Shown piece after piece: positions 11,431-34,872 of a stretch of 49,249 nt of DNA (position 1 is the first letter of the stretch; every line of letters starts with the position of its first letter). The DNA comes from Candidatus Gastranaerophilales bacterium (GTDB lineage Bacteria > Cyanobacteriota > Vampirovibrionia > Gastranaerophilales > JANQFW01): contig JANQHM010000169.1 of NCBI GenBank assembly GCA_028282645.1, forward strand, positions 1 to 49,249. The letters run 5' to 3'. The notes below the pieces were generated by a model. That model made no database searches. It saw only the letters and a program-made list of their open reading frames with translations, and had not been told where the DNA came from. The position numbers and the translations under genes were made by a program.

Positions 11431-11444
11431 GAATTCTTGCTTAT

Positions 11445-11595
11445 TATACTAACTCAAAAATTGGTAGTGGTCCGTTTTGAGTACTGATGCTTACAAGTAA
11501 ACTTAAGCTATATCAAAAGCTTACAGCACTGACATAAGAAAGGTGATTACCATCACCCAAAAATTTAATCTGAAATTTAATTGAGTGCCAGTATA
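11445..11595 (+). repeat. Repeat family B copy B9 (short form) interrupted by MITE A
   Basis: TATACTAACTCAAAAATT [A insertion] CAAAAATTTAATCTGAAATTTAATTGAGTGCCAGTATA. Removing A and one TSD copy restores a contiguous short B. Confidence 0.75.
11463..11557 (+). mobile_element. MITE family A copy nested in B9
   Basis: GGTAGTGGTCCG...GGTGATTACCATCACC. Exact 8-bp TSD CAAAAATT at 11455-11462 and 11558-11565. Confidence 0.9.
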
Positions 11596-11596
11596 A

Positions 11597-11788
11597 CTAG
11601 CTTGCTTTAGTTATTTTATTTGCTTTTATACAAGATGTACAAACATTAATTCTTTTAGCAACACCGTTAAAGTTAACCTTTATCTTTTGTAGATTAGGTT
11701 TTTGCCTGTATGTATGTGCTTTATGTGAAAAGCATATTTTATTAGCTTTTAACTTTGTTTTACCACAAACTTCACAAATTTTAGCCAT
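11597..11788 (-). CDS. rpmB: 50S ribosomal protein L28 (Cys-containing, zinc-ribbon type)
   Basis: MAKICEVCGK....N..SH......R...PNLQK..V..NG..KR..VC..C matches L28. CxxC pairs at both ends. ATG at 11788 with a GAGG RBS is preferred over the longer track ORF. Confidence 0.85.
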   Translation of the reverse strand: MAKICEVCGKTKLKANKICFSHKAHTYRQKPNLQKIKVNFNGVAKRINVCTSCIKANKITKAS

Positions 11789-11975
11789 TATAAATACCTC
11801 TATATAATAATATATTAACAAATTTTGATTTTAATCAGATATTATAAATAATACTCAAAGTAGAGCTATATATCAAGTAAAAAGTTCATTTGATAAGGAT
11901 TTTAAAAAAAATAAAAACCGGTAAATATTTTACCGGTGTGAGGATTTTGGGTTAATGAGGAGTTATAAAAATTCT

Positions 11976-12069
11976 GGATAGTGGTCAGTTGAGTACTGGT
12001 GCTTACAAGTAAACTCAAGTCATATCAAAAGCTTACAGCGATGACATAAGAAAGGTGATGACCATCACC
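11976..12069 (+). mobile_element. MITE family A copy
   Basis: GGATAGTGGTCAG...GGTGATGACCATCACC. AAATTCTG direct repeat at 11969-11976 and 12070-12077; the last G overlaps the element end. Confidence 0.88.
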
Positions 12070-12077
12070 AAATTCTG

Positions 12078-12135
12078 TATACTAACTTAAAAGTACTTTT
12101 TAAATTATTCAAGTTTGTTAAAACTTTTAAAGTAC
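12078..12135 (+). repeat. Repeat family B fragment B10 (degenerate)
   Basis: TATACTAACTTAAAAGTACTTTTTAAATTATTCAAGTTTGTTAAAAC resembles the TATACTAACTC end of B only. Confidence 0.35.
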
Positions 12136-12156
12136 ACAATTTTTAATAGCAAAAAA

Positions 12157-12915
12157 TTAGAAGGCCATTGAATATGGATAATATGATGTAGCCATTGCAC
12201 CATTCAATCTTCCAATATAATTATTTTGTGTATTACCAAAATCTAAAACTGCGGGATAAGTTTCTCTAATTTTTCCGGTAAGGCTGCTACCATATCTTTT
12301 TTTATAATCTTTAATCACAGCAGCAACAAAGTGATTGTTTGGATTTCTTAAAAGTACTTCATCAACTGTTGATCTGTCAGAACGCGCGAATTTTAAAGCA
12401 TCATGTAGCGCAGCTGATGCATTTGGCACACTAACCTTTGCAGCTTGGTTTAATAGTTTTATTTCTTCAGGCGGTCCTCCTACTCTAAAGAAATTTAACC
12501 TGTCAAAATTTCTTCTTAAATCTCTTCTTAACTTAGTCAGATCACCGCCGCCGTATTTTTGTGCATAAACTATTTCAACAGCAGCAAGCTTCATTGGGTT
12601 TGTTGCAGCTAAATTTTGAAGAATAATTTTTGCCTGCCCTCTGTTAAAAATACCTTTTAAGCCCATTGTAGAGCGTAAGTTTGATGCTAAAATATCGAGT
12701 TGAGGCCTTAGCGCAGGATTGTTTAGCATTGCATTTACACCATATCCACTACCGGCATACCCTGGTCCCATTCCTGCATTTGCAGGTGTCAGCGGTCTTT
12801 GCCTGCTTAAAAAAATATTATTAAATTCAGATTCTATTACACGGCTATCACTAACAGCTCCATATATTGATGCCATTCGTGCCGGACCATATTCATTGTA
12901 AATTCCAGGATACAT
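12157..12915 (-). CDS. Annexin-repeat-like protein (two repeats)
   Basis: Strong GGAGGAAGGA RBS. Two segments fit the annexin repeat pattern (x..L...M/K.....x(4-6)..I/L L.....N.....V/I...Y...YG..L...I/L): LASNLRSTMGLKGIFNRGQAKIILQNLAATNPMKLAAVEIVYAQKYGGGDLTKLRRDL and ALHDALKFARSDRSTVDEVLLRNPNNHFVAAVIKDYKKRYGSSLTGKIRE. Confidence 0.5.
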   Translation of the reverse strand: MYPGIYNEYGPARMASIYGAVSDSRVIESEFNNIFLSRQRPLTPANAGMGPGYAGSGYGVNAMLNNPALRPQLDILASNLRSTMGLKGIFNRGQAKIILQNLAATNPMKLAAVEIVYAQKYGGGDLTKLRRDLRRNFDRLNFFRVGGPPEEIKLLNQAAKVSVPNASAALHDALKFARSDRSTVDEVLLRNPNNHFVAAVIKDYKKRYGSSLTGKIRETYPAVLDFGNTQNNYIGRLNGAMATSYYPYSMAF

Positions 12916-13122
12916 ACATCCTTCCTCCTCTGAACTTCCCCTAATTTAAAAGTATACTTTTACAGAATTAAATATTATTTCTATTAAATTTTTATATAGG
13001 CTTGTTTTCCCCAGTTTCCCTTTTTAGTTTACAAGTTTATTCCCTATTTATATAAAAACAAATAAATATTTAAAATTTACAAATTAAATAAACTTATTAA
13101 ATTATATTAAGACACAAAGTTT

Positions 13123-13215
13123 GGTAGTAGTCAGCTGAGTACTGATGCTTACAAACAAACTCAAGTTATATCAAAAGCTTACAGCAATGACATAAAAAAG
13201 GTGATGACCATCACC
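13123..13215 (+). mobile_element. MITE family A copy
   Basis: GGTAGTAGTCAGCTGAG...GGTGATGACCATCACC. Flanks are CAAAGTTT (13115-13122) and CAAAATTT (13216-13223), 7/8 identical. Confidence 0.88.
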
Positions 13216-13228
13216 CAAAATTTTATCT

Positions 13229-13298: not shown

Positions 13299-13922
13299 TT
13301 AATTAGTATTTAATAAATGCACAAGAGTTACAAAGCTAGTAGCTAAATCCTGATTCAGAACTATAATATCTTTGTTAACTTTTAAATTAACAGGAGAAAA
13401 ATTCCAAATCGCTTTTATTTGAGAACTTTCTACTATTTCTATAATATTACTAACAGCACTAGCAGGGATGGTAATAATAACAAACTTAACATTATTTTTA
13501 CTAACCATATCCTGAAACCTAGAAATACAATAAATTTGTTTATTTTGAACTTTCGTCCCTATTTTTGCAGGATTATTATCAAAAATAGCAGTAATATCCA
13601 GGCCAAATTTTTTAAAACCTTCATATTTAGCAAGAGCAACACCAAGATTTCCCGCTCCGATAAGATAGGCTTCCTTAAGCTTGTTAAATCCCAAAAATTG
13701 TTCAAGATGTAGTTTTAACTCAAAGGTATCGAAACCAACCTTTGGTTTACCAACATAACCTGTTGCCGCTATATCTTTTCTGACTTGAGTGTCGTCGATA
13801 TTTAGCTCCTTGGCAATTTTAGAACTGGAAATATATTTTTTGCCATAATTAACAATTGCCGCGGAAATTATATTATAGTAGCTTGGCAGCCGTTTTAAGG
13901 TTGGAATCGATACTTGTTTCAT
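13299..13922 (-). CDS. rex: Redox-sensing transcriptional repressor Rex
   Basis: IP..T.KRLP.YY N-terminal winged-helix motif. ISS..IA..L.I...QVRKD. Rossmann GAGNLG...Y. C-terminal ..NF.P..L. Confidence 0.9.
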   Translation of the reverse strand: MKQVSIPTLKRLPSYYNIISAAIVNYGKKYISSSKIAKELNIDDTQVRKDIAATGYVGKPKVGFDTFELKLHLEQFLGFNKLKEAYLIGAGNLGVALAKYEGFKKFGLDITAIFDNNPAKIGTKVQNKQIYCISRFQDMVSKNNVKFVIITIPASAVSNIIEIVESSQIKAIWNFSPVNLKVNKDIIVLNQDLATSFVTLVHLLNTN

Positions 13923-13982
13923 ATCTATAAATCCACCGATTATTATTTATAATTACTAAAGTACTACTTGTTGTTATCTACT

Positions 13983-15731
13983 CTAGTCTTCTACGTTCCA
14001 GATATCTCTTTCTTCGTATTCTGTATGTAATAAGTGGTGAGCTTTTTTACTATTTGGTTCGCCTAAGTGCTTTTCATATAGAGTCTTCACTGATGGATTT
14101 TCATGAGATTTTTGAAGCTTCATCTTCGCATCAGCTTTATATAACCCATCTTTTCTGTTGCCCTTAATTAAACGGTCTTTACAGCTAACAGGCTGACCGG
14201 CTCCACCAATACATCCGCCGGGACATGCCATAACTTCAATTACGTCATAGTGAGCTTCGCCTTTATTGATTTTCTCAATAACTCTGTCAGCTTCAGCTAA
14301 AGTATTGATAATTGCAAGTCTAATCTTTTTACCATCAATATCAACAGTAAACTCTTTTAAAGTATCAAGCCCGCGAGCCTCTTCAAAGTTAACATTTTCA
14401 AGAGTTTTTCCGGTGATTACTTCATAAGCGGTTCTTAAAGCAGCTTCTGCAACACCGCCGGAAGCCCCGAATATAACACCTGCACCGGAATATTCACCAA
14501 ACGGCATATCCATTTCTTCAGACTCTAAATTACTGATATTAACACCGGCTGATTGTATTAACTTAAATACTTCTTGAGTAGTTAATACAATATCAACTTC
14601 TTGTACGCCATTCTTACTGAATTCAGGTCTTACAGCTTCAGCTTTTTTAGCAGTACAAGGCATAATTGATACAACAACCAAGTCTTTAGACTCAATTTTG
14701 TACTCTTTACAAAGAACATCTTTAGCTAAAGCACCGAACATTTGCTGTGGAGACTTGGCAGAAGAAAGGTTATTCAAAAAGTTCTTGTGGTTCTGCTCGG
14801 CATGTCTTACCCAGGCAGGACAACAACTTGTGAATAAAGGTAGTCTTTCATTATTTTTAAGCCTGCCAATAAGCTCAGTACCTTCTTCCATAATCGTAAC
14901 GTCTGCAGAAAAACTAGTATCAAATACTTTATTAATACCCACTCTCCTAAGCGCAGCAGCCATAATGCCAATAATATTTTCCCCTGGTGGTATACTAAAC
15001 TGTTCTCCAAGTGCAACCCTTACAGCAGGAGCTATTTGAACAATAACAGTTTTACTGTCATCATTAATAGCTTCAAATACTTTATCTACATCAGACTTAA
15101 TAGATAAAGCACCGGTTGGACAAACCGCAGCACACTGACCGCAATATACACAATCAACATCTTCAAGTTTACAGCCATATGCAGGAGCACAAACTGTTTT
15201 AGAACCTCTGTTAGAGAAGCTTAAAACGCTCTTGCCCTGAACTTCAGTACAAGCTCTAATGCAAGCACCACAAAGTATACATTTATTAGAATCTCTTACA
15301 AGACTAGGGTTAGAATCATCAATTTCAGCCTTTTCTTGTAATTTTTCAAATCTTAAGTCTTTTATATCATATTTATTTGATAATATTTGAAGTTCGCAAT
15401 CACTGCTTCTTTCGCAGGTTGTACATTCTCTGTCATGATTTGATAACAAGAGTTCAAGAGAAACCTTTCTAACTCTTCTAACTCTTTCAGAATTTGTTTT
15501 AATCTTAAGACCAGGTTCAGGAGGCATAGTACAACTAGCTTGGATTCCTCTGCCTTCAATTTCTACAACACACATACGGCATGCGCCATATAGTGTTAAA
15601 TCAGGTCTATAACAAAATGTAGGAACATCGATTCCAATTTTTTGAATTACTTCTAGCAAGTTTCTTTCATTGCTAAATTCAACTTCTTTGCCGTTTATAA
15701 ATATTGTATTTTTCACTTTAGTTTTTACCAT
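13983..15731 (-). CDS. hydA: [FeFe]-hydrogenase catalytic subunit (M3-type, HydA)
   Basis: N-terminal 2Fe-2S ferredoxin-like fold plus His-ligated and 2x[4Fe-4S] Cys clusters. H-cluster motifs TSCCPAW, MPCTAKK, EVMACPGGCIGGAGQP. Confidence 0.92.
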   Translation of the reverse strand: MVKTKVKNTIFINGKEVEFSNERNLLEVIQKIGIDVPTFCYRPDLTLYGACRMCVVEIEGRGIQASCTMPPEPGLKIKTNSERVRRVRKVSLELLLSNHDRECTTCERSSDCELQILSNKYDIKDLRFEKLQEKAEIDDSNPSLVRDSNKCILCGACIRACTEVQGKSVLSFSNRGSKTVCAPAYGCKLEDVDCVYCGQCAAVCPTGALSIKSDVDKVFEAINDDSKTVIVQIAPAVRVALGEQFSIPPGENIIGIMAAALRRVGINKVFDTSFSADVTIMEEGTELIGRLKNNERLPLFTSCCPAWVRHAEQNHKNFLNNLSSAKSPQQMFGALAKDVLCKEYKIESKDLVVVSIMPCTAKKAEAVRPEFSKNGVQEVDIVLTTQEVFKLIQSAGVNISNLESEEMDMPFGEYSGAGVIFGASGGVAEAALRTAYEVITGKTLENVNFEEARGLDTLKEFTVDIDGKKIRLAIINTLAEADRVIEKINKGEAHYDVIEVMACPGGCIGGAGQPVSCKDRLIKGNRKDGLYKADAKMKLQKSHENPSVKTLYEKHLGEPNSKKAHHLLHTEYEERDIWNVED

Positions 15732-15736
15732 TATTA

Positions 15737-17590
15737 CTAGACCTCCTTAGTAGCGTTGAATGGGCAAGAACTTAAACAAGCACCACATTTAATACACTTG
15801 TTCTGATCGATTTTATAAGGTTGCTTAACTTTACCTTCAATAGCATCAACAGGACATGATCTTGCACACTTTGAACAACCTTTACAAAGGTCTTCCGCTA
15901 TTACAATTTTTTTAAATGCTTCACAAACACCCGCAGGGCACCTCTTGCCTTCAATATGAGCCAGATATTCATCTTTAAAGTATTTTAACGTAGAAAGCAC
16001 CGGATTCGGAGCTGTTTTACCAAGACCGCAAAGAGAACCATCTTTAACTGCAAGTGCAAGCTCTTCAAGTATATCAAGATCACTAAGCTCAGCTTTGCCT
16101 GCAACTAGTTTTTCAAGGATTCTAAGCATATTTTTAGTACCTTCTCTACAAGGCACACACTTGCCACAAGACTCATTTTGTGTAAAGTTCATAAAGAATC
16201 TTGCAACTTCAACAATACAAGTATCTTCATTTAATACAACAAGCCCGCCGGATCCTACCATAGCACCTGCTTTAAGTAAAGAAGCATAGTCCAGTGGTAA
16301 ATCAAGATGCTCTTCTGTCAAACAACCGCCTGACGGACCGCCAATTTGAACAGCTTTAAATTTCTTGTTGTTTCTTATACCACCGCCTATATCAAAAATA
16401 ATTTTTCTTAAAGAAGTACCCATAGGAACTTCAATAAGACCTGTATTATTAACTTCTCCGGTTAAAGCAAAGGTTTTAGTGCCTGCACTGCCTTCCGTAC
16501 CAAGGGATTGAAACCATTCAGCACCGTTAATCATAATACCGGGTACGTTAGCAAAGGTTTCTACGTTATTAATTAAGGTTGGTTTTCCGAATAAACCTTT
16601 ATTTGCAGGGAATGGAGGTTTGGGTCTTGGCATACCTCTTTCACCTTCAATAGAAGCAATAAGAGCAGTTTCTTCACCGCAAACAAACGCACCGGCACCC
16701 TCTTTGATATGTAACTTAAAGTTAAATTTAGTTCCTAATATTTTAGAACCGAGGAAACCGTATTTTTCAGCATCAGTAATAGCTTTTCTTAATCTTTCAA
16801 TAGCTAAAGGGTATTCTGCACGTACATAGATGTATCCTTCGTCTGCACCAACCGCATAAGCAGCAAGTGCCATACCTTCTATAACTCTGTGAGGATCACC
16901 TTCCATAAGTGATCTATCCATAAATGCTCCGGGGTCACCTTCGTCACCATTGCAAATTACATATTTTTTATCGCCTTGAGCAGTTCTAACGAAAGTCCAC
17001 TTTCTCCCTGTTGGGAAACCACCGCCACCACGACCTTTTAGACCACTATCAGTAATAATATCGCATACTTCTTCAGGAGAAAGCTCTTTTAAAGCATTGC
17101 TAAGAGCTAAATATGTAGAATTTGCAATACTTTCTCTGATATCTTCAGGGTTTAGATGACCGCAATTTGATAAAGATGTTCTGGTTTGCTGTGCATAAAA
17201 GTTTATATCAGAGTTTCCTTGTTGAATATGACCATTTTGAGGATCTCTATATAATAATCTTTCTACTATTTCACCATTTTTAAGATGCTTTTCAACTATT
17301 TCTTCAACATCATCGCCTTTTACTTTGACGTAAGTAACATTTTTATCCGGTATCATAACGAGAACACCATTCTCACAGAAACCGTGGCAGCCGGTTTTAA
17401 TAGTTGTTACTCTTTCTTTTTTCATAGAAACATTAGCGCCAAGCTCTTCGAATCTTTTCACAACATCCAAAGATCCGTTTGCAACGCAGCCAGTACCTGC
17501 ACAAACAAGAACTCTTGTTCCCATTTGTTTAATATATTCTTTAGATTTTTCTTGTTCTTTTATCATGTCTACTGCAATTCCATTAATCAT
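15737..17590 (-). CDS. hydB: NuoF-like NAD(P)H-binding flavoprotein subunit of the trimeric hydrogenase (HydB)
   Basis: Thioredoxin-like [2Fe-2S] N-terminus. GRGGGGFPTGRKW and CNGDEGDPGAF (NuoF FMN/NADH site). CGKCVPCREG. C-terminal 2x CxxCxxCxxxCP ferredoxin motifs. Confidence 0.92.
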   Translation of the reverse strand: MINGIAVDMIKEQEKSKEYIKQMGTRVLVCAGTGCVANGSLDVVKRFEELGANVSMKKERVTTIKTGCHGFCENGVLVMIPDKNVTYVKVKGDDVEEIVEKHLKNGEIVERLLYRDPQNGHIQQGNSDINFYAQQTRTSLSNCGHLNPEDIRESIANSTYLALSNALKELSPEEVCDIITDSGLKGRGGGGFPTGRKWTFVRTAQGDKKYVICNGDEGDPGAFMDRSLMEGDPHRVIEGMALAAYAVGADEGYIYVRAEYPLAIERLRKAITDAEKYGFLGSKILGTKFNFKLHIKEGAGAFVCGEETALIASIEGERGMPRPKPPFPANKGLFGKPTLINNVETFANVPGIMINGAEWFQSLGTEGSAGTKTFALTGEVNNTGLIEVPMGTSLRKIIFDIGGGIRNNKKFKAVQIGGPSGGCLTEEHLDLPLDYASLLKAGAMVGSGGLVVLNEDTCIVEVARFFMNFTQNESCGKCVPCREGTKNMLRILEKLVAGKAELSDLDILEELALAVKDGSLCGLGKTAPNPVLSTLKYFKDEYLAHIEGKRCPAGVCEAFKKIVIAEDLCKGCSKCARSCPVDAIEGKVKQPYKIDQNKCIKCGACLSSCPFNATKEV

Positions 17591-17649
17591 ATATTTATTT
17601 CTCCTAACAGCTTTATTTTTTGTTTTGCCGAATTAAATCTTTAATATTC

Positions 17650-18147
17650 TTACACATGTTTCTTCATCAGCTCATCAAGAACTATAGACATGGCTTCAGA
17701 TGTCATTTTAGGATACACTTTATCATTAATCATCACAACAGGAGCTAATCCACACGCACCTAAACAACTAACTGTTTCCACACTAAATCTTAAGCAATCC
17801 GTTGTAATTTTTTCGCCTGTCAATCCGAGCTTCTTTTTAATTGCATTAAACACAGGCATACTGCCTCTAACGTGACAAGCAGTACCATCGCAAACTTTAA
17901 TTTCAAACTTACCTTTCGGGTTCAAACTAAATTGACTGTAAAAAGTAGCCACACCAAAAACACTGGCAGGTGAAAGTCCCATTTTTACAGAAACATAAGT
18001 AAGAGCTTCTTCCGGCAAGTATCGATAAACTTCCTGAATTTGTTGTAATATTGCAATTAAGTTGGATTTTTTATAATCATATTTTTTCAAAATACCATTA
18101 AGTTTACTTTGTTTTTCACTGGTTAAGCCTTGCTTTGTTGCTACCAT
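17650..18147 (-). CDS. hydC: NuoE-like [2Fe-2S] subunit of the trimeric hydrogenase (HydC)
   Basis: VCDGTACHVRG...SCLGACGLAP four-Cys NuoE/HoxE signature. AAAGGAGA RBS. Confidence 0.9.
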   Translation of the reverse strand: MVATKQGLTSEKQSKLNGILKKYDYKKSNLIAILQQIQEVYRYLPEEALTYVSVKMGLSPASVFGVATFYSQFSLNPKGKFEIKVCDGTACHVRGSMPVFNAIKKKLGLTGEKITTDCLRFSVETVSCLGACGLAPVVMINDKVYPKMTSEAMSIVLDELMKKHV

Positions 18148-20065: not shown

Positions 20066-21061
20066 ATGAGAAAAAAGAACTATTTTTTTTATATAGAATT
20101 TCTGCTCTGGTTTATGTTAGTTGGCAGCATTACATTATTTTTAATTAACTACTCAGATAAAATTACAATCCTAAATCAAGAACATGAAGTAACATTTAAA
20201 GACGTTGACAGTCTTGCTGTAGGCTCTCCGGTAAGGCTAATGGGCATAAAAGTCGGGCATGTAAAAAAACTAATAATCGATAAAGATAATATAAAAGTCA
20301 GATTCATAATAACAAAGCGTAATGTGAAAATACCCAAAGGTGCTAATGTCAGTATAGAATTTACGGGCCTTGCCGGCTCGAAATCTTTGGAAATTTTGCC
20401 ACCGAACACATCCGGTAAAGCAAAGAATCAATATGTAGTGCACGAACCAATAAGAGTAAATTCATTGACAAAGATTCAGCTTGAGATTATGGAATCTATA
20501 CTGGGCTTTTCCAAAAGTATAAAAGATAGCTTCGGTGATAAATCTCACGCCCAGATTATTAAAGAAATCAGCAATATAAATACTGTAGCAAAAAATATAC
20601 AAGTAAGTTTCAGCAACCTAAGAGTTAAGACAGAAAGCATTAATAACAACTTAACTATAAAATTTACAAATATAAACAATTTTTTAGATAGTAAAAATGC
20701 TAATTTAGAAGGTATAAATACTTTTTTAGAAAAAAATATCTTTCAAATAAAGTCACATGATATTATTCAAATGATAATTCAAGGTGATAAAGCTTTAAAT
20801 AAAAAATTAGAAAAAATTGATTATCCAAAATTTAATAATAAGTTAAAAAATTTTAACAAACAAACCTCAAACCTTAAAACTGTAATAAAAAAGCAATGCC
20901 ATGAGCAAAATTTCTTTCGCCAAATAATTCAAAAGCTAAAAGATGTTTCAAAGTCACTATCAAATCTAAAAAACTTTATTAAAAAGCAAGATTTAAGCAA
21001 AACACAAGCCGACACTAAAAAGTTAAAGCAGATTTCAGAACAACTCTCCAAATTTGATTAA
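20066..21061 (+). CDS. MlaD/MCE-domain protein with a long Asn/Lys-rich coiled-coil tail
   Basis: N-terminal TM helix then an MCE fold pattern (F.DV..L.VGSPVR..G..VG.V..L........V.F.I.....IP.GA...I...GL.G...LEI.P). Confidence 0.7.
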   Translation: MRKKNYFFYIEFLLWFMLVGSITLFLINYSDKITILNQEHEVTFKDVDSLAVGSPVRLMGIKVGHVKKLIIDKDNIKVRFIITKRNVKIPKGANVSIEFTGLAGSKSLEILPPNTSGKAKNQYVVHEPIRVNSLTKIQLEIMESILGFSKSIKDSFGDKSHAQIIKEISNINTVAKNIQVSFSNLRVKTESINNNLTIKFTNINNFLDSKNANLEGINTFLEKNIFQIKSHDIIQMIIQGDKALNKKLEKIDYPKFNNKLKNFNKQTSNLKTVIKKQCHEQNFFRQIIQKLKDVSKSLSNLKNFIKKQDLSKTQADTKKLKQISEQLSKFD

Positions 21062-21067
21062 TTATTG

Positions 21068-21143
21068 GGTAGTGGTCAGTTGAGTACTGATGCTTACAAG
21101 TAAACTCAAGTTATATCAAAAGCTTACAGTGATGGCCATCATC
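21068..21143 (+). mobile_element. MITE family A, short form (76 nt)
   Basis: GGTAGTGGTCAG...CTTACAGTGATGGCCATCATC. Exact 8-bp TSD AATTATTG at 21060-21067 and 21144-21151. The left TSD overlaps the stop codon of the MlaD-like gene. Confidence 0.88.
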
Positions 21144-22495: not shown

Positions 22496-22572
22496 TATAC
22501 TGCTTCAAAAATAAACTATTATAAGACTACTCTTTCTTGAATAATCTGAAAAGTATTTTTGAAGATATTATA
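22496..22572 (-). repeat. Repeat family B copy B11 (internally deleted)
   Basis: TATACTGCTTCAAAAATAAAC...CTTGAATAATCTGAAAAGTATTTTTGAAGATATTATA. Confidence 0.65.
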
Positions 22573-22667
22573 ACTTCCCAAATTTTCAACATATAACATA
22601 TAAATTAAAACAAACAAGATACAAAGTTTACTATTTTATCTATAAAATTTACAAAATTTAAAATACT

Positions 22668-25106
22668 CTACACGCTGGCCAACTCTGCCATAGCAGAAAA
22701 CTTATAAGCAGATGTACTAATAATGCTACATCCCTGCTCTTCGTCATACTCAACTTTGATAACATTATCAATGCTCTCTTTGATATCTTCTATGTGAGTA
22801 ATTAATATAACCTGCTCAAAGCTGTGAGAAAGCCTGTTTAAAAGATTTACAACATTGTTACGTCTATTCTCATCCAAAGATCCAAATACTTCATCAAGTA
22901 TAAGCAATGATAAAGATCGTCCGGTACGCTGTGCAATCATCTTGGATATAGCAAGCCTCAAGCATAAATTAGCAACATCCTCTTCCCCACCGGATATCAC
23001 TGGCTTAATTTCACCCTCGTCATACAAGTTGATTTCATACTTGTCATTTAGCTCCAATTGTGAATACCGATCATCCGTAAGTTCTTTTAAAAAATCACTG
23101 GCTATATACGATAACTCAGGACGCGCAAGGTTATTAAGCTTTTCCAAAAACTTCCCGTAGAATCTGTCCAACTCAATTAAATAATTGTGTTCAACTTCTT
23201 TATTTTTAATAGCTTCCAGCTTTTTTTTGTATTCTTGTTCGTGCTTTAAGCAATTTTCCAAATTATTTTGTGCGTTTTTAACTTCAGCTTCAGATTTTAC
23301 AATACTATTTTGGGCATTATAAAATCCATCTTTAACTTTCAAAAACTTTTCCTCTGCCTGCTTAAAGCTCTCCGGCGAAAACTCAAGCTTTTTAATTTTT
23401 TCTTCGTTTTCATCATAAACCTTTTGAGCATCATCAAGTGATTTTTTATGTTCGCTTAAGTCTTTCTTAACTGCTTCAAGTTTTGCAACCGTCTCCTTAA
23501 GGGAAATTAACTCTTCATATTTTTCTCTCAAAGGCTTAATTTCAACCCTTAGCTTTTCCATTAATTCCTTGTCATAACCGGACGGTAGTTCACTTAAAGT
23601 TTTCTTAATTTTTTCCACTTCAGATTTATTTATGTCCAGCTCTTTTTTAACCTTTTTATAACGATCCTGTTCCGCCTTATATTCTCCTTGGACCTTGATA
23701 AAATCGCTATACTCCTTTTCTTTAAGTTGTTTTTGCTTATTTAATTCTTCACTGACTGTAGGAATAATTTTTAATTCATTTAATTCATTTGTAAGTGCTT
23801 TTATATCATTATCAATAGCAATTTTATTAATTTCAAAATCAGAAATAACTTTTTTAAACTCATTTTTTAAAGGTCTTTCACAAGTAGGACAGGCTCCACT
23901 TTCGCCCTTATCCTCTATTAATTTTTGCTGTTTATTAATTTTTTGAAATTCTTTTTGCTTTTGGCTTATTAATACTTCTTTTTCTCGCATAGCAGCTTGC
24001 TGCCTTGCAGCTAAATCCTGTATTTTTTTATTTAATAATTCAATATCTTTTTTAAGGTCAGAGATCTTATCAACCTGCTCTTTTTTAGACTTACCTGACT
24101 CAATAACAGCTTTAATTTCTTCATTTAGCTTGCCGGAGTCTTTTTCTAATCCTTCAAGCTTGGATATAAGTGTTTGTTTGGTAATTTCATGAGCCTGTAA
24201 TTTTTCCTGTTCTTTTAATTGCTTTTCTATATCTTTGTATTTAAACTCATACTCTTTAAGTTCAGTATATTTTTTATTTTTTTCTTCTAAATCTTTAAAC
24301 TCTAAATCTAATTTTTTCAAATTTTCAGAAACATACTTAAGTTTTTGCCCTGTAGCTTCCTGTTCTCTGGTCAGTTTATCAAACTCGTCTTTAACTTTTT
24401 TAGATTTTTCCCACTCAGGCTCAATTTCAGCCAATTGCTTAGATATATCAGTAAATTCTTTTTGTGTAGCCTCAAGCTGCTTTTTAGAATTATCCAAAGC
24501 CTCTTGATGCTTTTTTTTCTCTTCTTCAATTACATTAGCATCTTGCAAACCCAGCTTAAAGCCTTCAATTTCTCTCTTAAGGTTGTTTTTATCCTCTCTA
24601 ATTTTTTTTAAAGCGTCGCCTATCTTTTCATAATTCAAAACTTTACTGATAAAATTCCGTCTTTCCGTGGCAGACTTCACATTGCTTAAAAATGATAATT
24701 CTTTTTGCCCTGTAAAATATGTATTAAAAAACTCGTTCTTAGTCATCCCGATTTTTTCAACCAAGTACTTGGTCACCTCGGTTTGACTGTTAACAATAGG
24801 AGTATCAACTCTACCCAGATAGACTTCAGCCCTGTCAAGATATCTTTTAACCTTGTATATTTCCTTTTCCAATTGAAAAACAACTTCCACAAGCACTTTA
24901 GTACGAGCTTTAGCCTTATTCCATTTTATAGAATCCCTTGTACCACGAGCCGCATCATTGCCGTAAATAGCCCAACAAATAGCCTCAAGTACCGTACTTT
25001 TTCCGGAACCGTTTACACCGTTAATAATAGTAATTCCCTCAGAAAATTCAATATGCGAATTACAGTGCTGCCTAAAGTTTTCCATCTTAAGCGAAATTAA
25101 TCGCAT
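22668..25106 (-). CDS. sbcC: SbcC/Rad50-family ATPase with a zinc hook
   Basis: MRLISLKMENFRQH start. Walker A GVNGSGKST. Long coiled coils flanking a CPTC hook. Signature SGGEEDVANLCLRLA. Walker B LLILDEVF. ATG at 25106 overlaps the sbcD stop by 10 nt. Confidence 0.92.
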   Translation of the reverse strand: MRLISLKMENFRQHCNSHIEFSEGITIINGVNGSGKSTVLEAICWAIYGNDAARGTRDSIKWNKAKARTKVLVEVVFQLEKEIYKVKRYLDRAEVYLGRVDTPIVNSQTEVTKYLVEKIGMTKNEFFNTYFTGQKELSFLSNVKSATERRNFISKVLNYEKIGDALKKIREDKNNLKREIEGFKLGLQDANVIEEEKKKHQEALDNSKKQLEATQKEFTDISKQLAEIEPEWEKSKKVKDEFDKLTREQEATGQKLKYVSENLKKLDLEFKDLEEKNKKYTELKEYEFKYKDIEKQLKEQEKLQAHEITKQTLISKLEGLEKDSGKLNEEIKAVIESGKSKKEQVDKISDLKKDIELLNKKIQDLAARQQAAMREKEVLISQKQKEFQKINKQQKLIEDKGESGACPTCERPLKNEFKKVISDFEINKIAIDNDIKALTNELNELKIIPTVSEELNKQKQLKEKEYSDFIKVQGEYKAEQDRYKKVKKELDINKSEVEKIKKTLSELPSGYDKELMEKLRVEIKPLREKYEELISLKETVAKLEAVKKDLSEHKKSLDDAQKVYDENEEKIKKLEFSPESFKQAEEKFLKVKDGFYNAQNSIVKSEAEVKNAQNNLENCLKHEQEYKKKLEAIKNKEVEHNYLIELDRFYGKFLEKLNNLARPELSYIASDFLKELTDDRYSQLELNDKYEINLYDEGEIKPVISGGEEDVANLCLRLAISKMIAQRTGRSLSLLILDEVFGSLDENRRNNVVNLLNRLSHSFEQVILITHIEDIKESIDNVIKVEYDEEQGCSIISTSAYKFSAMAELASV

Positions 25107-26248
25107 TTTGCCATACTCCAATCTAGATACTGACGTGCTTTATCCTTAAATACATCTTTTTCCAATGTTTGAGACAGGTCAAAGTCTTTTATTTCTTCTT
25201 TTAAATACTCTTGAATACTTTTTTGCTTTGCTTCTTCTTCATTTCCATTTTCTTTATATTTTAAAGAATCCTTTTTAATAATATTTAGTCTAAAATGAAC
25301 AGCTTTTTTCTTTAATTCACGTATTTTTTTATAATCTAAACTTTTAATAATAATATCATCAACGTTTTTAAGGGTTAACCTGATTATAGACTTATCAAGT
25401 TTTGTAATTTTATCAACCTCATCGATAAATTTTTGGTTAATCTCCTCAACGCTCATGCCCTCAACGTCAATCCAAGGGATGTCAATAACTTTGCGGGTCT
25501 TTTTCAAAGTGTGAAACTTACATATTTTCTGCTCAAGGTCATATTCTATAAAACCTTTTTCCTGCTTGGCTTCCTGCCATATATTGGTTGAAGTCCGCTC
25601 AATCGCCCCTGAATAATAAATATTATCCGCAATGTCCACAAACTTGTGGTAATGCCCGAGCGCGACATAATTCCACTCATCCTTGGCAATATCGTTTTCT
25701 TCAATAATAGCGGATTCATTTTTGGTAATCTCGGCACACTTAGGACTGTTAAAAGATCCGTGCATCATTAAAATATTGTATTTATAATCCTTATCCGGCT
25801 TTATTGAGTACTCTTTAAATTTACTCAAACTGTTATAAGGAACACACATAACATTCAAGCTTAAATTATCAAGAGTAACGTTTTCAATATCAATATCAAC
25901 GACTTTTACTCGAGGAATAATGGCTTCCAGTATCTGTAAAACACTTCCTGATTCATACGATTTAACCCCTTCATGATTACCAGAAATAATAACAATAGGT
26001 ATATCGCATTGCTCTCTAAATTTTTGCAAAAGCACAACCGTATGATACATAGTGTTATTAGTAGGCCGTGGACGATGAAAAACGTCTCCTGCAATTAAAA
26101 CAGCAGCAGGATTAAGCTCAATAATCTTATCAAGAGCTTCTTTAAAAACTTTTAAAACATCTTTTTCCCTAATGTTAAAGCCATTTTTGTCAAGTCTGTT
26201 ATAAGCCCTGTATCCCAGATGTAAATCTCCAAGATGTACTATTTTCAT
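25097..26248 (-). CDS. sbcD: SbcD/Mre11-family nuclease
   Basis: Calcineurin-like phosphoesterase motifs HLGDLHLG, GDVFH, GNHE, MMHG, GHYH. Confidence 0.92.
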   Translation of the reverse strand: MKIVHLGDLHLGYRAYNRLDKNGFNIREKDVLKVFKEALDKIIELNPAAVLIAGDVFHRPRPTNNTMYHTVVLLQKFREQCDIPIVIISGNHEGVKSYESGSVLQILEAIIPRVKVVDIDIENVTLDNLSLNVMCVPYNSLSKFKEYSIKPDKDYKYNILMMHGSFNSPKCAEITKNESAIIEENDIAKDEWNYVALGHYHKFVDIADNIYYSGAIERTSTNIWQEAKQEKGFIEYDLEQKICKFHTLKKTRKVIDIPWIDVEGMSVEEINQKFIDEVDKITKLDKSIIRLTLKNVDDIIIKSLDYKKIRELKKKAVHFRLNIIKKDSLKYKENGNEEEAKQKSIQEYLKEEIKDFDLSQTLEKDVFKDKARQYLDWSMAKCD

Positions 26249-26278
26249 TGCTTTTTCCCAATTTTTCTAAAATATTGC

Positions 26279-28312
26279 TTAATCATCATCGTCATCACTT
26301 AATAAGTCATCAATCGTGGCCTTTTTTGGAGAAGGTGAATAGCTGTCTTCAAAGCTTGAACGTGGTGCTTTCTGTGTCAACTTGCTCTTAAAATACCCTA
26401 ATGCACCTTGCTTACCCCAGTTTTTAGCGTTTAATTCTGTTTTGCAAAGTGTTTTTCTTGCAATATCCTGGTCAACGTCATAAATAGCTTCTTTCACGTC
26501 ATTAGCTTTTATATTTTTATCTAGTCGTTTTAAATTATAAACCATAGCATCCTCAAAGCTGCGCTCAGGCACAGAAGGAAATTTGTCAATACCGTCTTGG
26601 CTGGTCATAATAGGCGGACGAGGAAACTTAACAAAAATATACTGGTTAAAATGCGGATGTCTAATAAGCAGCTTACCCTTTTCAAGGGTAGTAAGCTCGG
26701 CTTTAATACTCGAAGGCATTACACTATAACCTTGAGTAGATAGCTCATCCATATCCATACGTCCATAGACGCTAGTACCACAGTTACCAACGATTCTTTT
26801 GTTAACCTGAGACTTGAACTGTTGCGCGGAAAACAACACTAGGCCGAGATATCTTCCCCTCTCAGATATTTCAAGCAAGGTTTGCTTTAGATACGAGTTA
26901 CCACAATCATTAGAAGCATATTTATTAAGCTCATCCACAAACACAACAACTTTTTTAACCCCAAGTGCCTTTTTCTCGAGTAGTTCTCTAAGCTTTTCAA
27001 CCGCTCTTGTAAATACCAGGTCCTGTCCCAGGGGACTAACACCTGCAACGTCGATAACATAGATAGTCCTGTCTTTAAATTCACCCCAGGGTAAATCACT
27101 ACTGTCAGAATCATTCCCAACAAGGCCTTCGCACCTGTAAGTAATGTTCGTCAGCCTATTGTGGACTTTCCTAATGGTTGGTATAGCGTGTCCTCTCCAA
27201 CTGGATTTGCCTTCACCTTCCTCTGTATCATTTAAAACCCGCTGGAACCACTCGTTAAGATCGTTAAAATTCTGTATTTTTTTATGCAGCAAATAATGAG
27301 AGTCAAGCTTGTCCTGATTAATAATTTTTTCTTTCATAAACTGCAAAAACCCATCCGCTTTTGCATCTACATCATCTTTATTCATTAAAACATTTACATA
27401 ATCGAAAATATCAGTTAAGTTCCAGCTCAAAGGCTTAACATTATAGCTGATTTCCTCGTTTGTTCTTAAGGTATTCAAGTTAATTTTATCAGCTTTATAT
27501 GGTGCATAATATTCAACATTTTCAAAGGGTTTTGGTTCCAGTTTAAGTTTTCTGTACATTTCCAGCTCTTCTTGGGATAATTCAACAGCCGGCTGATCTA
27601 AAAACAATAAGTCAGGCCCTTTTACGTTGAATAAAACAGCAGCCACGCCCTCGTCATCCTTATCGTCTTTATGGTATTGGAAGATACTGGTTAACAAGAA
27701 TTGTACAATACTGGTCTTAGTTGCCAAGCCCGATACACCCGTAACATTAAGGTGAGCAGCTTCAGGGCCTAGTAAAAACCTGGAATCAAGATATACAGGA
27801 GAATAATTATCACCGTTAGTATAAAGCCCGACCGGTATGCCTGTTTTATCCGCATAACCGTCCATTCGTAGGGACTCTTTAATATCAGCATCGTCCGCCA
27901 AATAAATATTACCTATAGATACCGGCTGAATAGGCTCTTCAGGTATCATTTTAAGCGTTGAAGCCGTATAATATCTTATTTCAGGACGCTCCGTCTGTGC
28001 GCTGTCACTATATTGCGGGTTCCCCTCAGAACTTATAAAGTCGTGTATAGGTGCAGCCAAGTCAGTATAACTAATGCCTTCCGTTACAATACCGTAGACA
28101 ATGCGGTCAACTTTATTTCCTTTTTTATCAACGACTTGCCTGTCCGCAACAACTTTAACAATCGTGCCTATACCCACAGGCGAATCTAAATTTGTCCAAA
28201 AGCTAAAAGACTGTGCCGTATTAGGATTTTTTTCCGTAGCAATTACTCTGCCTACAGCTTTATTATGTACATATTTAAGTTGATCCTCTATTGATTCTAA
28301 ACTTGGATGCAT
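26279..28312 (-). CDS. herA: HerA-like hexameric ATPase/translocase (FtsK-HerA superfamily) with a non-canonical P-loop
   Basis: N-terminal HAS-barrel-like segment (GRVIATEKNP..FSFW......VGIGTIVKV). P-loop position reads VTGVSGLATKTS. Walker B VVVFVDELNKYA. Genomic pairing with nurA. Acidic tail DDLLSDDDDD. Confidence 0.75.
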   Translation of the reverse strand: MHPSLESIEDQLKYVHNKAVGRVIATEKNPNTAQSFSFWTNLDSPVGIGTIVKVVADRQVVDKKGNKVDRIVYGIVTEGISYTDLAAPIHDFISSEGNPQYSDSAQTERPEIRYYTASTLKMIPEEPIQPVSIGNIYLADDADIKESLRMDGYADKTGIPVGLYTNGDNYSPVYLDSRFLLGPEAAHLNVTGVSGLATKTSIVQFLLTSIFQYHKDDKDDEGVAAVLFNVKGPDLLFLDQPAVELSQEELEMYRKLKLEPKPFENVEYYAPYKADKINLNTLRTNEEISYNVKPLSWNLTDIFDYVNVLMNKDDVDAKADGFLQFMKEKIINQDKLDSHYLLHKKIQNFNDLNEWFQRVLNDTEEGEGKSSWRGHAIPTIRKVHNRLTNITYRCEGLVGNDSDSSDLPWGEFKDRTIYVIDVAGVSPLGQDLVFTRAVEKLRELLEKKALGVKKVVVFVDELNKYASNDCGNSYLKQTLLEISERGRYLGLVLFSAQQFKSQVNKRIVGNCGTSVYGRMDMDELSTQGYSVMPSSIKAELTTLEKGKLLIRHPHFNQYIFVKFPRPPIMTSQDGIDKFPSVPERSFEDAMVYNLKRLDKNIKANDVKEAIYDVDQDIARKTLCKTELNAKNWGKQGALGYFKSKLTQKAPRSSFEDSYSPSPKKATIDDLLSDDDDD

Positions 28313-28325
28313 ATATTACCTCACT

Positions 28326-29378
28326 TTAAGCAAATGCAAGACTTTCAAGTAAAGTCCAGCTTGGAGCTTTACATTTTAAATAATCTTCACAATATTTAAT
28401 AGGATAAATCATCCTGTCCCATCGAGATTCAGGAAATGCAATCGGGTTAGCTTCCAGCAATATCCAGCTGCTGATTTCGTCCACTTTGGATAGTAAGTCT
28501 GCCCTGTCAGGTATTTCAACCCGTATAATACCAAAGTCCATCTTGCCGTAGTTTTTATCCGAATGCAATCTTAAATACCAGCTAAAAACCTTTTCAGGAG
28601 TATTTTTAAATCTTCTTTTGGGCCTAAAAGCACAAGAACGCTCACCCTTTTTTATATTATAGATGCGGCATAGTTTTTCATAATCAAAGTACTGTACGTT
28701 ATGAGACTTAATAACACCTACTACATTAGCTTTTTTCATTAATTCACTGCTAATATTAGTAAGCCCGCCGTCAACATATAGCCAATCATCAGAGTTTTTA
28801 AACTCCAGTGCCCACTCATTAGCCATTGTTGACTCCATATGCCTTCTGTTCTCCTGAATTGCACTGTGCGCTTTTTTCTCAAACTCTTCCGGCATTAAAG
28901 GATAGTCAGATTCCCCCTTTGCTTTTATGCCTATATTTATAGGATTTATATTATAATCTTTAAAATCTTCAGCTTCTAAATAAAACTCAGGCTCGTCCCC
29001 GTTGAATTTAAACGGTAAATAAATATTCTCTTCCGCTCTTTTCAGACCTATTGAGTGCATTTTTTTATCAGTACGCTTCATTATTACAGCAGACATATAG
29101 CCGTAAGTAAAGGGAATAAAGTTATAATACATCAAAATACGCTTTTTTTCTATTCCATCCAAAAAATAATTGAACTTCGACCCACTTGCACTGACCTTAA
29201 TTTTTTTTGTACAAAATGCCCCATTATCTTCTACTATCTGAGCCTCCACATACTCAGTCTCTTGAGGTTGATATTTGGCAAAATCAAAATCTTGGTTACC
29301 ATTCGCACGATTAACACGAATATTTTTCCCCGCTTGCCTTTGCTCCTTTATATATTGAGAAAATTTTTTTAGTAGCAC
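28326..29378 (-). CDS. nurA: NurA-family 5'-3' nuclease
   Basis: NurA-like landmarks FLDGIEK (first catalytic Asp context), WLYVDGGL, VVGVIKSH, FSWYLRL, IIRVEIP, YPIKYCEDYLK. GTG start; exact start uncertain. Confidence 0.7.
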   Translation of the reverse strand: MLLKKFSQYIKEQRQAGKNIRVNRANGNQDFDFAKYQPQETEYVEAQIVEDNGAFCTKKIKVSASGSKFNYFLDGIEKKRILMYYNFIPFTYGYMSAVIMKRTDKKMHSIGLKRAEENIYLPFKFNGDEPEFYLEAEDFKDYNINPINIGIKAKGESDYPLMPEEFEKKAHSAIQENRRHMESTMANEWALEFKNSDDWLYVDGGLTNISSELMKKANVVGVIKSHNVQYFDYEKLCRIYNIKKGERSCAFRPKRRFKNTPEKVFSWYLRLHSDKNYGKMDFGIIRVEIPDRADLLSKVDEISSWILLEANPIAFPESRWDRMIYPIKYCEDYLKCKAPSWTLLESLAFA

Positions 29379-29511
29379 TTGTTCAACACCAAATTTTACC
29401 CCTTATTTATTTAACTACGAATTTAAAAATAAGTCAATTGAAGAGCCAAGCAGTAAATATTTTCCCGGTACCAAAGGTTATGAGGAAGAAGCCAAAAAAT
29501 TAAACCAAAAA

Positions 29512-33925: not shown

Positions 33926-34273
33926 GTGAAGGGATATAACTTTCATAAAATGTTAAAGCAAGCGCAGGATATGCAAAAGCAAATGGAAAGCACTCAACAA
34001 GAATTAGAAGGTATAGAAGTTGAGGGTGTTGCAGGTGGTGGAGTTATAAATATTAAATTTAACGCGAAAAACGATCCTTTATCCGTAAAAATAAAGCCTG
34101 AAGCAATTAACCCGGAGGCTCCCGAAAGTGTGGATGAAGAAACAATAGAAATGCTTGAGGATTTATTCCTGAGTGCTTTAAAAGATGCAAAAATAAAGAT
34201 TGACGGACTAGTTGAAGAAAAAATGTCATCAGTAACCGGAGGCTTAAATCTTAATATACCCGGATTATTTTAA
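33926..34273 (+). CDS. ybaB: YbaB/EbfC nucleoid-associated protein
   Basis: MLKQAQ.MQ..M...Q.EL....VEG.AGGG...I......D.L.V.I.PE start. Classic ybaB-recR pairing. GTG start with a GGAGG RBS. Confidence 0.85.
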
Positions 34274-34275
34274 AT

Positions 34276-34872
34276 ATGAACCTTACCAGACCTTTAGCAA
34301 AGCTAATAGAAGAATTTCAAAAACTACCGGGAATTGGTCCGAAATCAGCGCAGAGAATGGCATTTCACCTGTTAAAAATGCCATACGACGATGTTAAAGC
34401 TTTTTCTCAAGCTGTGATTGATGCCAAAGAAAATATTAAATATTGCAATATATGTTTTAATTTATCATCCATAGCTCCTTGTGAAATATGCTCTGATAAA
34501 TCTAAAACCGACAATATAATATGTGTGGTTTCAGAATCTAAAGATATTATTCCAATTGAAAAAACAAAGGAATTTAACGGAAAATATCACGTATTGCAAG
34601 GGTTGATCTCTCCATTAGATGGCATCGGACCGGAAGAATTAAAAATAAGAGAAATGGTCGAACGCATTGGCAAGGAAAATACACAAGAAGTTATTTTAGC
34701 CTTAAATCCTTCTGTAGAGGGAGAAGCAACCAGCTTATATATAAGTAAGCTTTTAAAGCCTATTGGAGTAAAAGTATCCAGAATAGCATTTGGTTTACCT
34801 GTTGGCGGAGACCTTGAATATGCAGATGAAATGACTCTAGCTAAAGCAATAGAAGGTCGAAGAGAAATATAA
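34276..34872 (+). CDS. recR: Recombination protein RecR
   Basis: [24 protein letters not shown] helix-hairpin-helix. C4 zinc finger CNICFNLSS...CEIC. Toprim VVSESKDI. C-terminal [13 protein letters not shown]. Confidence 0.95.

Follow-up and report, generated by a model that had tools for sequence, protein, structure and literature searches.

A bacterial nurA-herA-mre11-rad50 operon with a likely role in DNA-end resection in a Gastranaerophilales genome

Introduction

Bacteria resect broken DNA via RecBCD, AddAB or AdnAB, and archaea do so via HerA-NurA with Mre11-Rad50 (reviewed in PMC7752040). Archaeal HerA-NurA works together with Mre11-Rad50 (PMC3326311, PMC4351679), and the genes of the archaeal operon are given in the order herA, mre11, rad50, nurA (PMC4351679). 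In bacteria, NurA-HerA has been investigated in Deinococcus and Thermus (PMC9960219, PMC4663267, PMC5448004). The pair from Deinococcus radiodurans carries out a 5'-strand resection that depends on translocation, and the physiological role of bacterial NurA-HerA has been called uncertain or controversial (PMC9960219). In the thermophile Oceanithermus profundus, sbcD and sbcC lie directly downstream of nurA-herA in a cluster of the order nurA-hepA(herA)-sbcD-sbcC, which was likened to the archaeal architecture of double-strand-break repair (PMC5448004). Here, we describe a four-gene cluster of nurA, herA, mre11 (sbcD) and rad50 (sbcC) in a 49,249-nucleotide (nt) stretch of DNA from a Candidatus Gastranaerophilales bacterium (assembly GCA_028282645.1, contig JANQHM010000169.1), the whole of which we refer to as the window. 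The original prediction, made from the letters of the window, had seen in this cluster an archaeal-style operon that might be either a horizontally acquired resection machine or a nuclease module against foreign DNA. Our analysis argues that it is likely a bacterial operon of the chromosome, passed on by vertical descent, whose products process and resect the ends of DNA double-strand breaks.

Results

The four genes follow each other on the minus strand between positions 22668 and 29378, in the order nurA-herA-mre11-rad50 and in the same direction, as judged from the listing of open reading frames (ORFs; Table 1). All predicted ORF coordinates and spacings were reproduced. The spacer between nurA and herA measures 13 nt and carries a GAGG ribosome-binding site ahead of herA, the one between herA and mre11 measures 30 nt, and the stop of mre11 and the start of rad50 overlap by 10 nt, given that rad50 starts at the ATG at 25106 (MRLISLKMENFR...). 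Translation from this ATG yields 812 amino acids (aa), and an identical gene call is found in a public protein collection; the start chosen by the ORF lister, a TTG at 25121 (ORF 22668-25121), is an in-frame alternative upstream of it. The overlap suggests that mre11 and rad50 are translationally coupled. A promoter/terminator scan found no terminator-like site on the minus strand within the four genes, and we infer that they are co-transcribed. A possible nurA promoter, put forward as a candidate only, consists of TTGACT and TTAAAT spaced by 17 nt. It was not flagged by the consensus scan, which was uninformative in this AT-rich window (38 promoter-like sites versus 31 expected).

The product of herA is not recognised by standard resources when used as a single sequence. 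It has no match to any Pfam family at E ≤ 0.01 and none in NCBIfam, and a match to Pfam TRM5 at 0.011 was dismissed as spurious. The Pfam models for HerA-type proteins, which we take to be DUF87 and HAS-barrel, turned up in none of the outputs, and the matches to the HerA models of PADLOC were weak (E 0.004-0.2). A profile built from 24 HerA homologues matched D. radiodurans HerA (7f6d_B) with an E-value of 6e-58 over residues 11-601 of 618, i.e., its full length. The same protein (7wrw_A) came first when an AlphaFold2 (AF2) model of the window HerA (predicted local distance difference test score, pLDDT, of 78) was compared to solved structures by Foldseek (E 2e-37, 606 aligned columns, template-modelling (TM) scores 0.66/0.76). 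Archaeal HerA proteins from Thermococcus and Sulfolobus ranked next (1e-23 to 1e-19) and the HerA proteins of the Sir2-HerA and DUF4297-HerA anti-phage systems ranked lower still (~1e-17). Identity to Deinococcus HerA is 24-25% versus 12-16% to archaeal HerA structures; within the Protein Data Bank (PDB), the latter went undetected by the sequence profile at E<10 and were reached by fold only. A closer inspection of the ATPase motifs shows that the segment GVSGLATKT aligns with GISGVATKT of D. radiodurans, which places K199/T200 at the positions of K175/T176, residues that contact the nucleotide and Mg2+ (PMC9960219). Likewise, D460/E461 of the Walker B motif align with D487/E488, and all four residues are invariant in our HerA alignment. 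Judged from profile and model, the product is a HerA ATPase of the bacterial Deinococcus type, for which hexamer formation and translocase activity are predicted.

The alignment to D. radiodurans HerA stops before an extra C-terminal region of ~100 aa with an acidic end. HerA proteins related to that of the window share a conserved acidic or aromatic tail, which reads ...IDDWL in Melainabacteria, ...DDDPYGD in oxyphototrophic cyanobacteria and ...ISEEPY in Gemmatimonadota; that of the window protein reads ...IDDLLSDDDDD. They resemble the C-terminal tip DDDIPF of the single-stranded DNA-binding protein (SSB), and from its sequence the tail could serve to dock a partner. In its wider sense, the HerA family counts ~1,254 clusters at 50% identity (E ≤ 1e-3); 259 of them reach E ≤ 1e-30.

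NurA likewise escapes recognition, as the window sequence alone has no match in NCBIfam or, even at E ≤ 10, in Pfam. A profile of 34 NurA homologues reached D. radiodurans NurA (7f6d_H) at E 8e-4 and TM1739 of Thermotoga maritima (1zup) at E 1e-3; nine of the 34 homologues match the Pfam NurA family PF09376, the best at 2.8e-8. The AF2 model (pLDDT 90) has D. radiodurans NurA as its best and sole strong Foldseek match (7f6d_G, E 7e-13, probability 1.0, TM ~0.5). TdpB comes second (E 0.015), followed by the PIWI domains of Argonaute proteins, a ranking that fits an RNase H/PIWI-like nuclease. Archaeal NurA was not detected in the PDB by the sequence profile of the window family at E<10, and archaeal NurA structures are absent among the 50 listed Foldseek matches, all of which have E<1. 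Across the 34 sequences, D74 (LDG motif), E182 and D203 (DG motif) never vary and H226 is retained in at least 90%, which makes these four residues candidate catalytic residues. The gene adjoins herA in the window and likewise in most related loci. On the strength of profile and fold, the product is a NurA-family nuclease of the bacterial type, its activity being predicted.

Thus, both proteins fail to match Pfam or NCBIfam, which, taken literally, is an outcome that the original prediction had named as refuting it, but family profiles and predicted structures identify them nonetheless. As these approaches recover only bacterial NurA and HerA by sequence, the pair belongs to a bacterial lineage. 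The subfamily goes unrecognised by current Pfam and NCBIfam, and the genes are therefore annotated in public records as 'hypothetical protein' or 'ATP-binding protein'.

The identities of the other two proteins were obtained directly from Pfam, NCBIfam and sequence motifs. Mre11 matches Pfam Metallophos (1.8e-12, over cutoff) and NCBIfam Mre11_Sulfo (6.7e-25), falls just short of TIGR00619 sbcd (76.1 bits, cutoff 77.65) and reaches 60-88 bits against the archaeal Mre11 equivalogs with cutoffs of 500-600. Its phosphoesterase motifs I-V are intact (D8xH10, GD54-55, GNHE 91-94, H163 and GHYH 198-201) and largely invariant in the Mre11 alignment. The best PDB matches are Mre11 from Methanocaldococcus jannaschii and Pyrococcus furiosus, with profile scores of 112 and 93 bits, compared to 66 bits for T. 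maritima, 38 bits for Escherichia coli and 67 bits for SbcD 7dog.

Rad50 matches Pfam AAA_23 and SbcC_Walker_B (both over cutoff) as well as SMC_N. Its NCBIfam match to Rad50 PRK03918 (4.9e-63, 213 bits) is below the cutoff of 700, and TIGR00618 sbcc gives 107 bits at a cutoff of 478, so that by these scores the protein is within the superfamily but outside every curated Rad50/SbcC equivalog. The head motifs comprise Walker A (GVNGSGKS, 30-37), the signature ISGGE at ~704, Walker B (LLILDE, 734-739), a D-loop read by eye (DEVFGSLD, 738-745) and the H-loop histidine H771. As had been predicted, a CPTC zinc hook is present at residues 406-409; it is the only CxxC of the protein, lies in the exact middle of its 812 aa and is flanked by Lys/Glu-rich, heptad-like sequence of a coiled coil. 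Rad50 sequences from Melainabacteria and Gemmatimonadota, when aligned, show no variation at C406, P407, T408 and C409 or in the head motifs. Here, too, archaeal proteins are the best PDB matches, with profile scores of 154 bits for M. jannaschii, 134 for P. furiosus, 102 for T. maritima and 50 for E. coli SbcC. Among solved structures and curated models, Mre11 and Rad50 are thus closer to archaeal proteins than to E. coli SbcCD, with all scores far under the archaeal equivalog cutoffs.

We investigated how widespread the cluster is. A HerA-profile scan over one genome per species (GTDB) gave 80 loci, to which loci of individual proteins were added, and the cluster was surveyed by tblastn with the four window proteins, taking the 62 loci with enough flanking DNA as denominator. 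nurA, herA, mre11 and rad50 are colinear on a single strand in 54 of the 62 loci, and in the window as in all 54 the order is nurA-herA-mre11-rad50, with nurA first, unlike in the archaeal operon. The colinear carriers include dozens of Gemmatimonadota, among them the cultured Roseisolibacter agri (L086), and one metagenome-assembled genome (MAG) of Armatimonadota (L049). Within Melainabacteria, the cluster of one locus is as compact as in the window (L083), another is cut off after mre11 (L085) and in a third two opposite-strand genes sit between herA and mre11 (L002). The supposition that bacterial NurA-HerA pairs are usually not joined to SbcCD therefore finds no support in Gemmatimonadota, Armatimonadota and Melainabacteria. 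The window proteins share ~70% (HerA), ~52% (NurA), ~54% (Mre11) and ~49% (Rad50) identity with those of the Melainabacteria loci L002 and L083, and 51%, 29%, 31% and 34%, respectively, with those of Gemmatimonadota. The identities of the four proteins drop roughly in step, as co-inheritance predicts.

Several related loci show additional genes. An extra ORF lies in the herA-mre11 interval of 27 Gemmatimonadota loci (L008, L023, L030, L043, L082, L086, there at 5842-6726, and 21 more). This fifth ORF is on the same strand and encodes ~290 aa that lack a Pfam match and whose N-terminus resembles a signal peptide or that of a lipoprotein; possibly, an insertion without relation to the operon became fixed in the phylum. 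In the Melainabacteria locus L084 (5229-6484), nurA-herA is located directly downstream of PycTM and nucleotide cyclase genes in a Pycsar-like arrangement, and a ResIII/DEAD helicase gene is found further upstream of these. Nine IMG/VR contigs (L087-L095) carry a distant nurA-herA subfamily without mre11 and rad50, the HerA of which is 31-34% identical to that of the window; in L090-L092, a GHKL-type ATPase gene (HATPase_c_3, 2.6e-10) follows. This viral-contig nurA-herA may be a separate mobile or conflict-related module. In Synechococcus PCC 7502 (L001), a 666-aa P-loop protein (N-terminus GGSRSGKS; 7903-9903) encoded divergently to herA was considered as a conserved partner and rejected; Pfam does not recognise it, and none of the other loci compared encodes it.

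To follow the descent of the cluster, we built a neighbour-joining tree of HerA with 100 bootstraps, rooted on D. radiodurans HerA. Melainabacteria and oxyphototrophic cyanobacteria are each supported at 100% and as sisters at 82%; Gemmatimonadota are supported at 85% with Longimicrobiales basal, and the Armatimonadota form a separate group. These four lineages constitute one clade with ~50% mutual identity, set off from D. radiodurans by a long branch. The tree mirrors organismal relationships, and the phylogeny is thus consistent with vertical descent. For HerA, NurA and Rad50 alike, MAGs of Candidatus Melainabacteria and Gastranaerophilales supplied the closest homologues (43-72% identity), and the window probably derives from a member of the Melainabacteria (Vampirovibrionia). 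The best 120 Rad50 homologues are from Melainabacteria and then Gemmatimonadota; among their named entries there is no archaeal and no oxyphototrophic cyanobacterial name. Affinity to archaea was gauged by the similarity ranking in PDB and NCBIfam, which is a proxy, the taxa of the HerA tree being bacterial. At third codon positions, the GC content (GC3) of the four genes amounts to 0.29-0.35, which falls inside the range of their neighbours (0.15-0.33) or slightly exceeds it, and neither GC3 nor the GC content of the window (~32%) gives a compositional sign of horizontal transfer. Hence, the suggested horizontal acquisition finds no backing in tree, Rad50 neighbours or composition, and the arrangement is common and, as the tree suggests, vertically inherited, an outcome that the original prediction had itself named as speaking against it. 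As far as sequence comparison can tell, the label 'archaeal-style' fits the gene content and, loosely, the Mre11-Rad50 subtype, but not HerA-NurA, the gene order or a recent transfer.

The operon is surrounded by ordinary chromosomal genes, with a GAF histidine kinase and a response regulator upstream of nurA. These two have no homologues in the related loci and hence do not travel with the operon. The expected lineage-specific hypothetical genes in its flanks do exist; they encode 211 and 224 aa and match no family, and none of the related loci holds a homologue of them. Other genes of the window encode MlaD, a CAAX protease, HydABC, Rex, HtrA, HypF, YbaB-RecR, PrmA, AccA/AccD and a protein with SLH domains. 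The ybaB(ebfC)-recR pair (33926-34872, plus strand) lies ~4.5-5 kb upstream of nurA and implies a RecFOR-type pathway of RecA loading in the host. A [FeFe]-hydrogenase trio of HydA, HydB (NuoF-like) and HydC (NuoE-like), together with a Rex-like redox regulator (13299-18147), fits the fermentative, non-photosynthetic lifestyle of Melainabacteria. The SLH-domain protein (812 aa, 41425-43863) contains three 84-nt tandem repeats at 43433-43684 in which codons for Cys, Gly, His and Thr abound, and is followed by several ORFs that consist of short repeats rich in Ala/Pro/Lys or in Gly (44307-45143, 45538-46419 and 48112-48864); these are probably all proteins of the cell envelope.

Dispersed repeats of at least two families occur in both orientations in many intergenic regions of the window. 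The first family measures ~76-147 nt with the core GGTAGTGGTCAGTTGAGTACTGATGCTTACAAG..., the second ~58-106 nt with the core AATCTGAAAAGTATTTTAGAGTTAG. From their sequence they look like miniature inverted-repeat transposable elements (MITEs) or repetitive extragenic palindromic (REP) elements; scanning the window against Rfam and for tRNAs gave no match, repeats included. The prediction that the operon is bounded by such elements was borne out on one side only, by a weak copy downstream of rad50. There is none upstream of nurA, and the repeat family concerned, D4, has at least seven copies across the window and is thus not specific to the operon; the copy at 21058-21133 belongs to another family. 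We therefore rejected the view of an operon bracketed by mobile elements.

Table 1 Features of the window around and within the nurA-herA-mre11-rad50 operon, and positions of dispersed repeats.
Feature	Position	Strand	Description
nurA	28326..29378	-	350 aa, GTG start; NurA-family nuclease, bacterial type (predicted activity), RNase H/PIWI-like fold
herA	26279..28312	-	677 aa; predicted ATPase/translocase: HAS-barrel, RecA-like core, helical insertion, C-terminal extension
mre11 (sbcD)	25097..26248	-	383-aa Mre11 phosphoesterase
rad50 (sbcC)	22668..25106	-	812-aa Rad50 ABC ATPase with coiled coil
HerA Walker A segment GVSGLATKT	27713..27739	-	residues 192-200, K199/T200
HerA acidic C-terminal tail, ending KKATIDDLLSDDDDD	26282..26326	-	HerA residues 663-677
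Rad50 zinc-hook codons C406-P-T-C409	23880..23891	-	sole CxxC, protein midpoint
Region 5' of nurA, intergenic	29379..29511	-	133 nt; possible promoter TTGACT, 17 nt, TTAAAT, by eye
Repeat family D4, weak copy	22517..22574	.	62% identity; just downstream of rad50
Dispersed intergenic repeats	870-1033, 5121-5267, 7313-8045, 11421-12167, 13079-13225, 21058-21133		
Dispersed intergenic repeats (continued)	22517-22574, 41004-41369, 45160-45252, 46535-46600, 47458-47968, 49139-49241		

Discussion

A machine for end resection is the best reading of the operon, as had been suggested at the outset. By analogy with the described systems, Mre11-Rad50 would most likely process the end, followed by resection of the 5' strand by HerA-NurA. 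In this scheme, Mre11-Rad50, a nuclease and ABC ATPase linked through zinc hooks, would find, tether and clean DNA ends and trim blocked ones. A HerA hexamer, its HAS-barrel face docked on a NurA dimer, would then load at the end; ATP-driven translocation of HerA along the duplex would pass the unwound strands into NurA, and NurA would break down the 5' strand to leave a 3' tail, as is known from the complexes of D. radiodurans (PMC9960219) and of archaea (PMC3326311). RecA loading would come next, with recR encoded ~5 kb off. We infer the physical cooperation of the four proteins and their role in vivo; the main new case for such a cooperation in bacteria comes from the finding that several phyla have conserved the operon.

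Several observations weigh against this assignment. Some relatives possess only part of the set: herA occurs without linked nurA, mre11 or rad50 in oxyphototrophic cyanobacteria (Synechococcus PCC 7502, L007 and L019) and without the other three genes in the Gastranaerophilales loci L004-L006, of which L004 and L006 are short contigs and only L005 has long flanks; the Melainabacteria locus L084 has nurA-herA without mre11-rad50. Deletion of nurA or herA in D. radiodurans and Thermus had a modest effect on, or even improved, damage resistance, leaving the physiological role unsettled (PMC9960219), and Thermus HerA (HepA) also influences DNA donation and transformation (PMC5448004). As for NurA, the candidate catalytic residues are assigned by invariance, and the pin-like motif of the D. 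radiodurans protein was not identified in the window NurA.

A bolder form of the proposal is that the operon is an ancient, self-contained bacterial resection machine, in which the four proteins are physically coupled, possibly via the conserved SSB-like acidic/aromatic C-terminal tail of HerA, and which replaces RecBCD/AddAB as the main pathway of double-strand-break resection in these mesophilic phyla (Melainabacteria, Gemmatimonadota and Armatimonadota). This is a tentative idea that we think rather doubtful. If true, it would mean that the partnership of Mre11-Rad50 and HerA-NurA is neither archaeal nor specific to thermophiles, and it would supply the missing functional context for the puzzling bacterial NurA-HerA.

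We consider it improbable that the operon serves to degrade phage or other foreign DNA, with HerA feeding linear invading DNA to NurA and Rad50-Mre11 acting as sensor or effector, after the manner of defence systems that contain HerA or SMC-like proteins. PADLOC returned matches for HerA that are weak (mad8 at 3e-7, and the HerA models mentioned above) and for Rad50 (mad3 at 6e-26, also LmuB and PbeC); those of Rad50 reflect a generic similarity of ABC/SMC heads, and NurA and Mre11 have none. The HerA proteins of the Sir2-HerA and DUF4297-HerA systems are structurally related to the window HerA, but all defence HerAs are outranked by Deinococcus HerA and by archaeal HerAs of HerA-NurA complexes, and the locus encodes no Sir2, DUF4297 or other effector partner. 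In favour of a defence role, nurA-herA adjoins Pycsar-like genes at L084, the IMG/VR contigs carry their distant nurA-herA subfamily with the GHKL ATPase after it, and a RecBCD-like double role in repair and defence has been proposed for archaeal HerA-NurA (PMC3326311). Against it, the surroundings in the window are housekeeping genes without a defence island, plasmid and viral collections yield distant HerA relatives only (25-34% identity), and the cluster is near-universal in the sampled Gemmatimonadota, with a HerA tree that follows phylogeny, unlike patchy defence genes. A RecBCD-like side function in defence is conceivable; as the primary role, defence is disfavoured by the partners, the context and the phylogeny-following distribution.

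It also appears quite unlikely that HerA-NurA is mainly a DNA pump for transfer, transformation or chromosome segregation that is loosely coupled to mre11-rad50. Such a function is suggested by the defects that Thermus HepA mutants show in transformation and in donating DNA by transjugation (PMC5448004), by the ties of the FtsK-HerA superfamily to DNA pumping (PMC2588523; reviewer comment in PMC2933680) and by those relatives that carry herA or nurA-herA without mre11-rad50. However, the strict colinearity with mre11-rad50 in 54 of the 62 loci and in three phyla would be left unexplained by a pump, mre11 and rad50 overlap, the gap between herA and mre11 is short, and the gene annotation of the window shows no conjugation or competence genes in the vicinity. 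A recent transfer of the block from thermophilic archaea is very hard to credit: its gene content equals that of the archaeal operon and Mre11 and Rad50 score highest against archaeal structures and NCBIfam models, but these scores stay far under the archaeal equivalog cutoffs (213 bits versus 700 for Rad50), archaeal HerA and NurA escape our sequence profiles and archaeal NurA the listed Foldseek matches, HerA is nearer to Deinococcus, the best Rad50 homologues bear no archaeal name where named, nurA comes first and not last as in the archaeal order (PMC4351679), the HerA tree agrees with the phylogeny of the bacteria and the composition shows no anomaly.

The reading as an operon for DNA-end resection thus makes the four genes of the window an ordinary housekeeping operon rather than an exotic acquisition. 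Beyond this genome, our data reveal that a distinct, conserved HerA/NurA subfamily shares one operon with Mre11-Rad50 across several mesophilic bacterial phyla. The kind of cluster is already known from Oceanithermus; how widely it occurs among mesophilic bacteria seems to have received too little notice, since its NurA and HerA escape the standard profiles. In the literature searched, which did not include Iyer et al. 2004 and Constantinesco et al. 2004, we found no link between NurA/HerA and Gemmatimonadota, and among papers naming NurA, HerA and cyanobacteria together, none appeared to describe the cluster in the parts available to us. The arrangement lends genomic support to a repair role of bacterial NurA-HerA, and tractable carriers exist, e.g., the cultured R. 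agri.

Among known systems, NurA-HerA of D. radiodurans is the closest solved relative of both window proteins (PDB 7F6D, 7WRW/7WRX; PMC9960219). The two HerA proteins share the deviant Walker A sequence G-x-S-G-x-A-T-K-T-S and the Walker B DE, at an overall identity to the window proteins that is low (~24% for HerA and 16% for NurA). Unlike its D. radiodurans counterpart, the window HerA has the ~100-aa C-terminal extension and belongs to a separate subfamily, and nurA-herA is not known to be linked to sbcCD in Deinococcus or in Thermus. Oceanithermus profundus matches the window in its four-gene arrangement, but its HepA, sharing 66% identity with that of Thermus thermophilus, belongs to the Thermus type, from which the clade of the window HerA, found in mesophilic phyla, is set apart by description as a different subfamily. 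The archaeal operon of Sulfolobus, Pyrococcus and Thermococcus combines the same four functions in tight, co-directional genes with an identical herA-mre11-rad50 core, and its Rad50 resembles that of the window in length (~810-880 aa) and CxxC hook. Its hosts are thermophilic, in whom the four genes are essential, whereas the host of the window is a low-GC bacterium with fermentative genes and probably mesophilic. SbcCD of the E. coli type has in common with the window the Mre11/Rad50 superfamily, the overlapping sbcD-sbcC genes and the combination of a nuclease with a zinc-hook ABC ATPase; however, the similarity is weaker (50 bits for Rad50, 38 bits for Mre11), SbcC is longer (~1,048 aa versus 812 aa) and the genes are unlinked to nurA-herA. 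Finally, Sir2-HerA/Nezha, DUF4297-HerA and TdpAB share the hexameric ATPase fold of HerA, and the HerA anti-phage systems differ from the window in employing Sir2 or DUF4297 effectors in place of Mre11 and Rad50.

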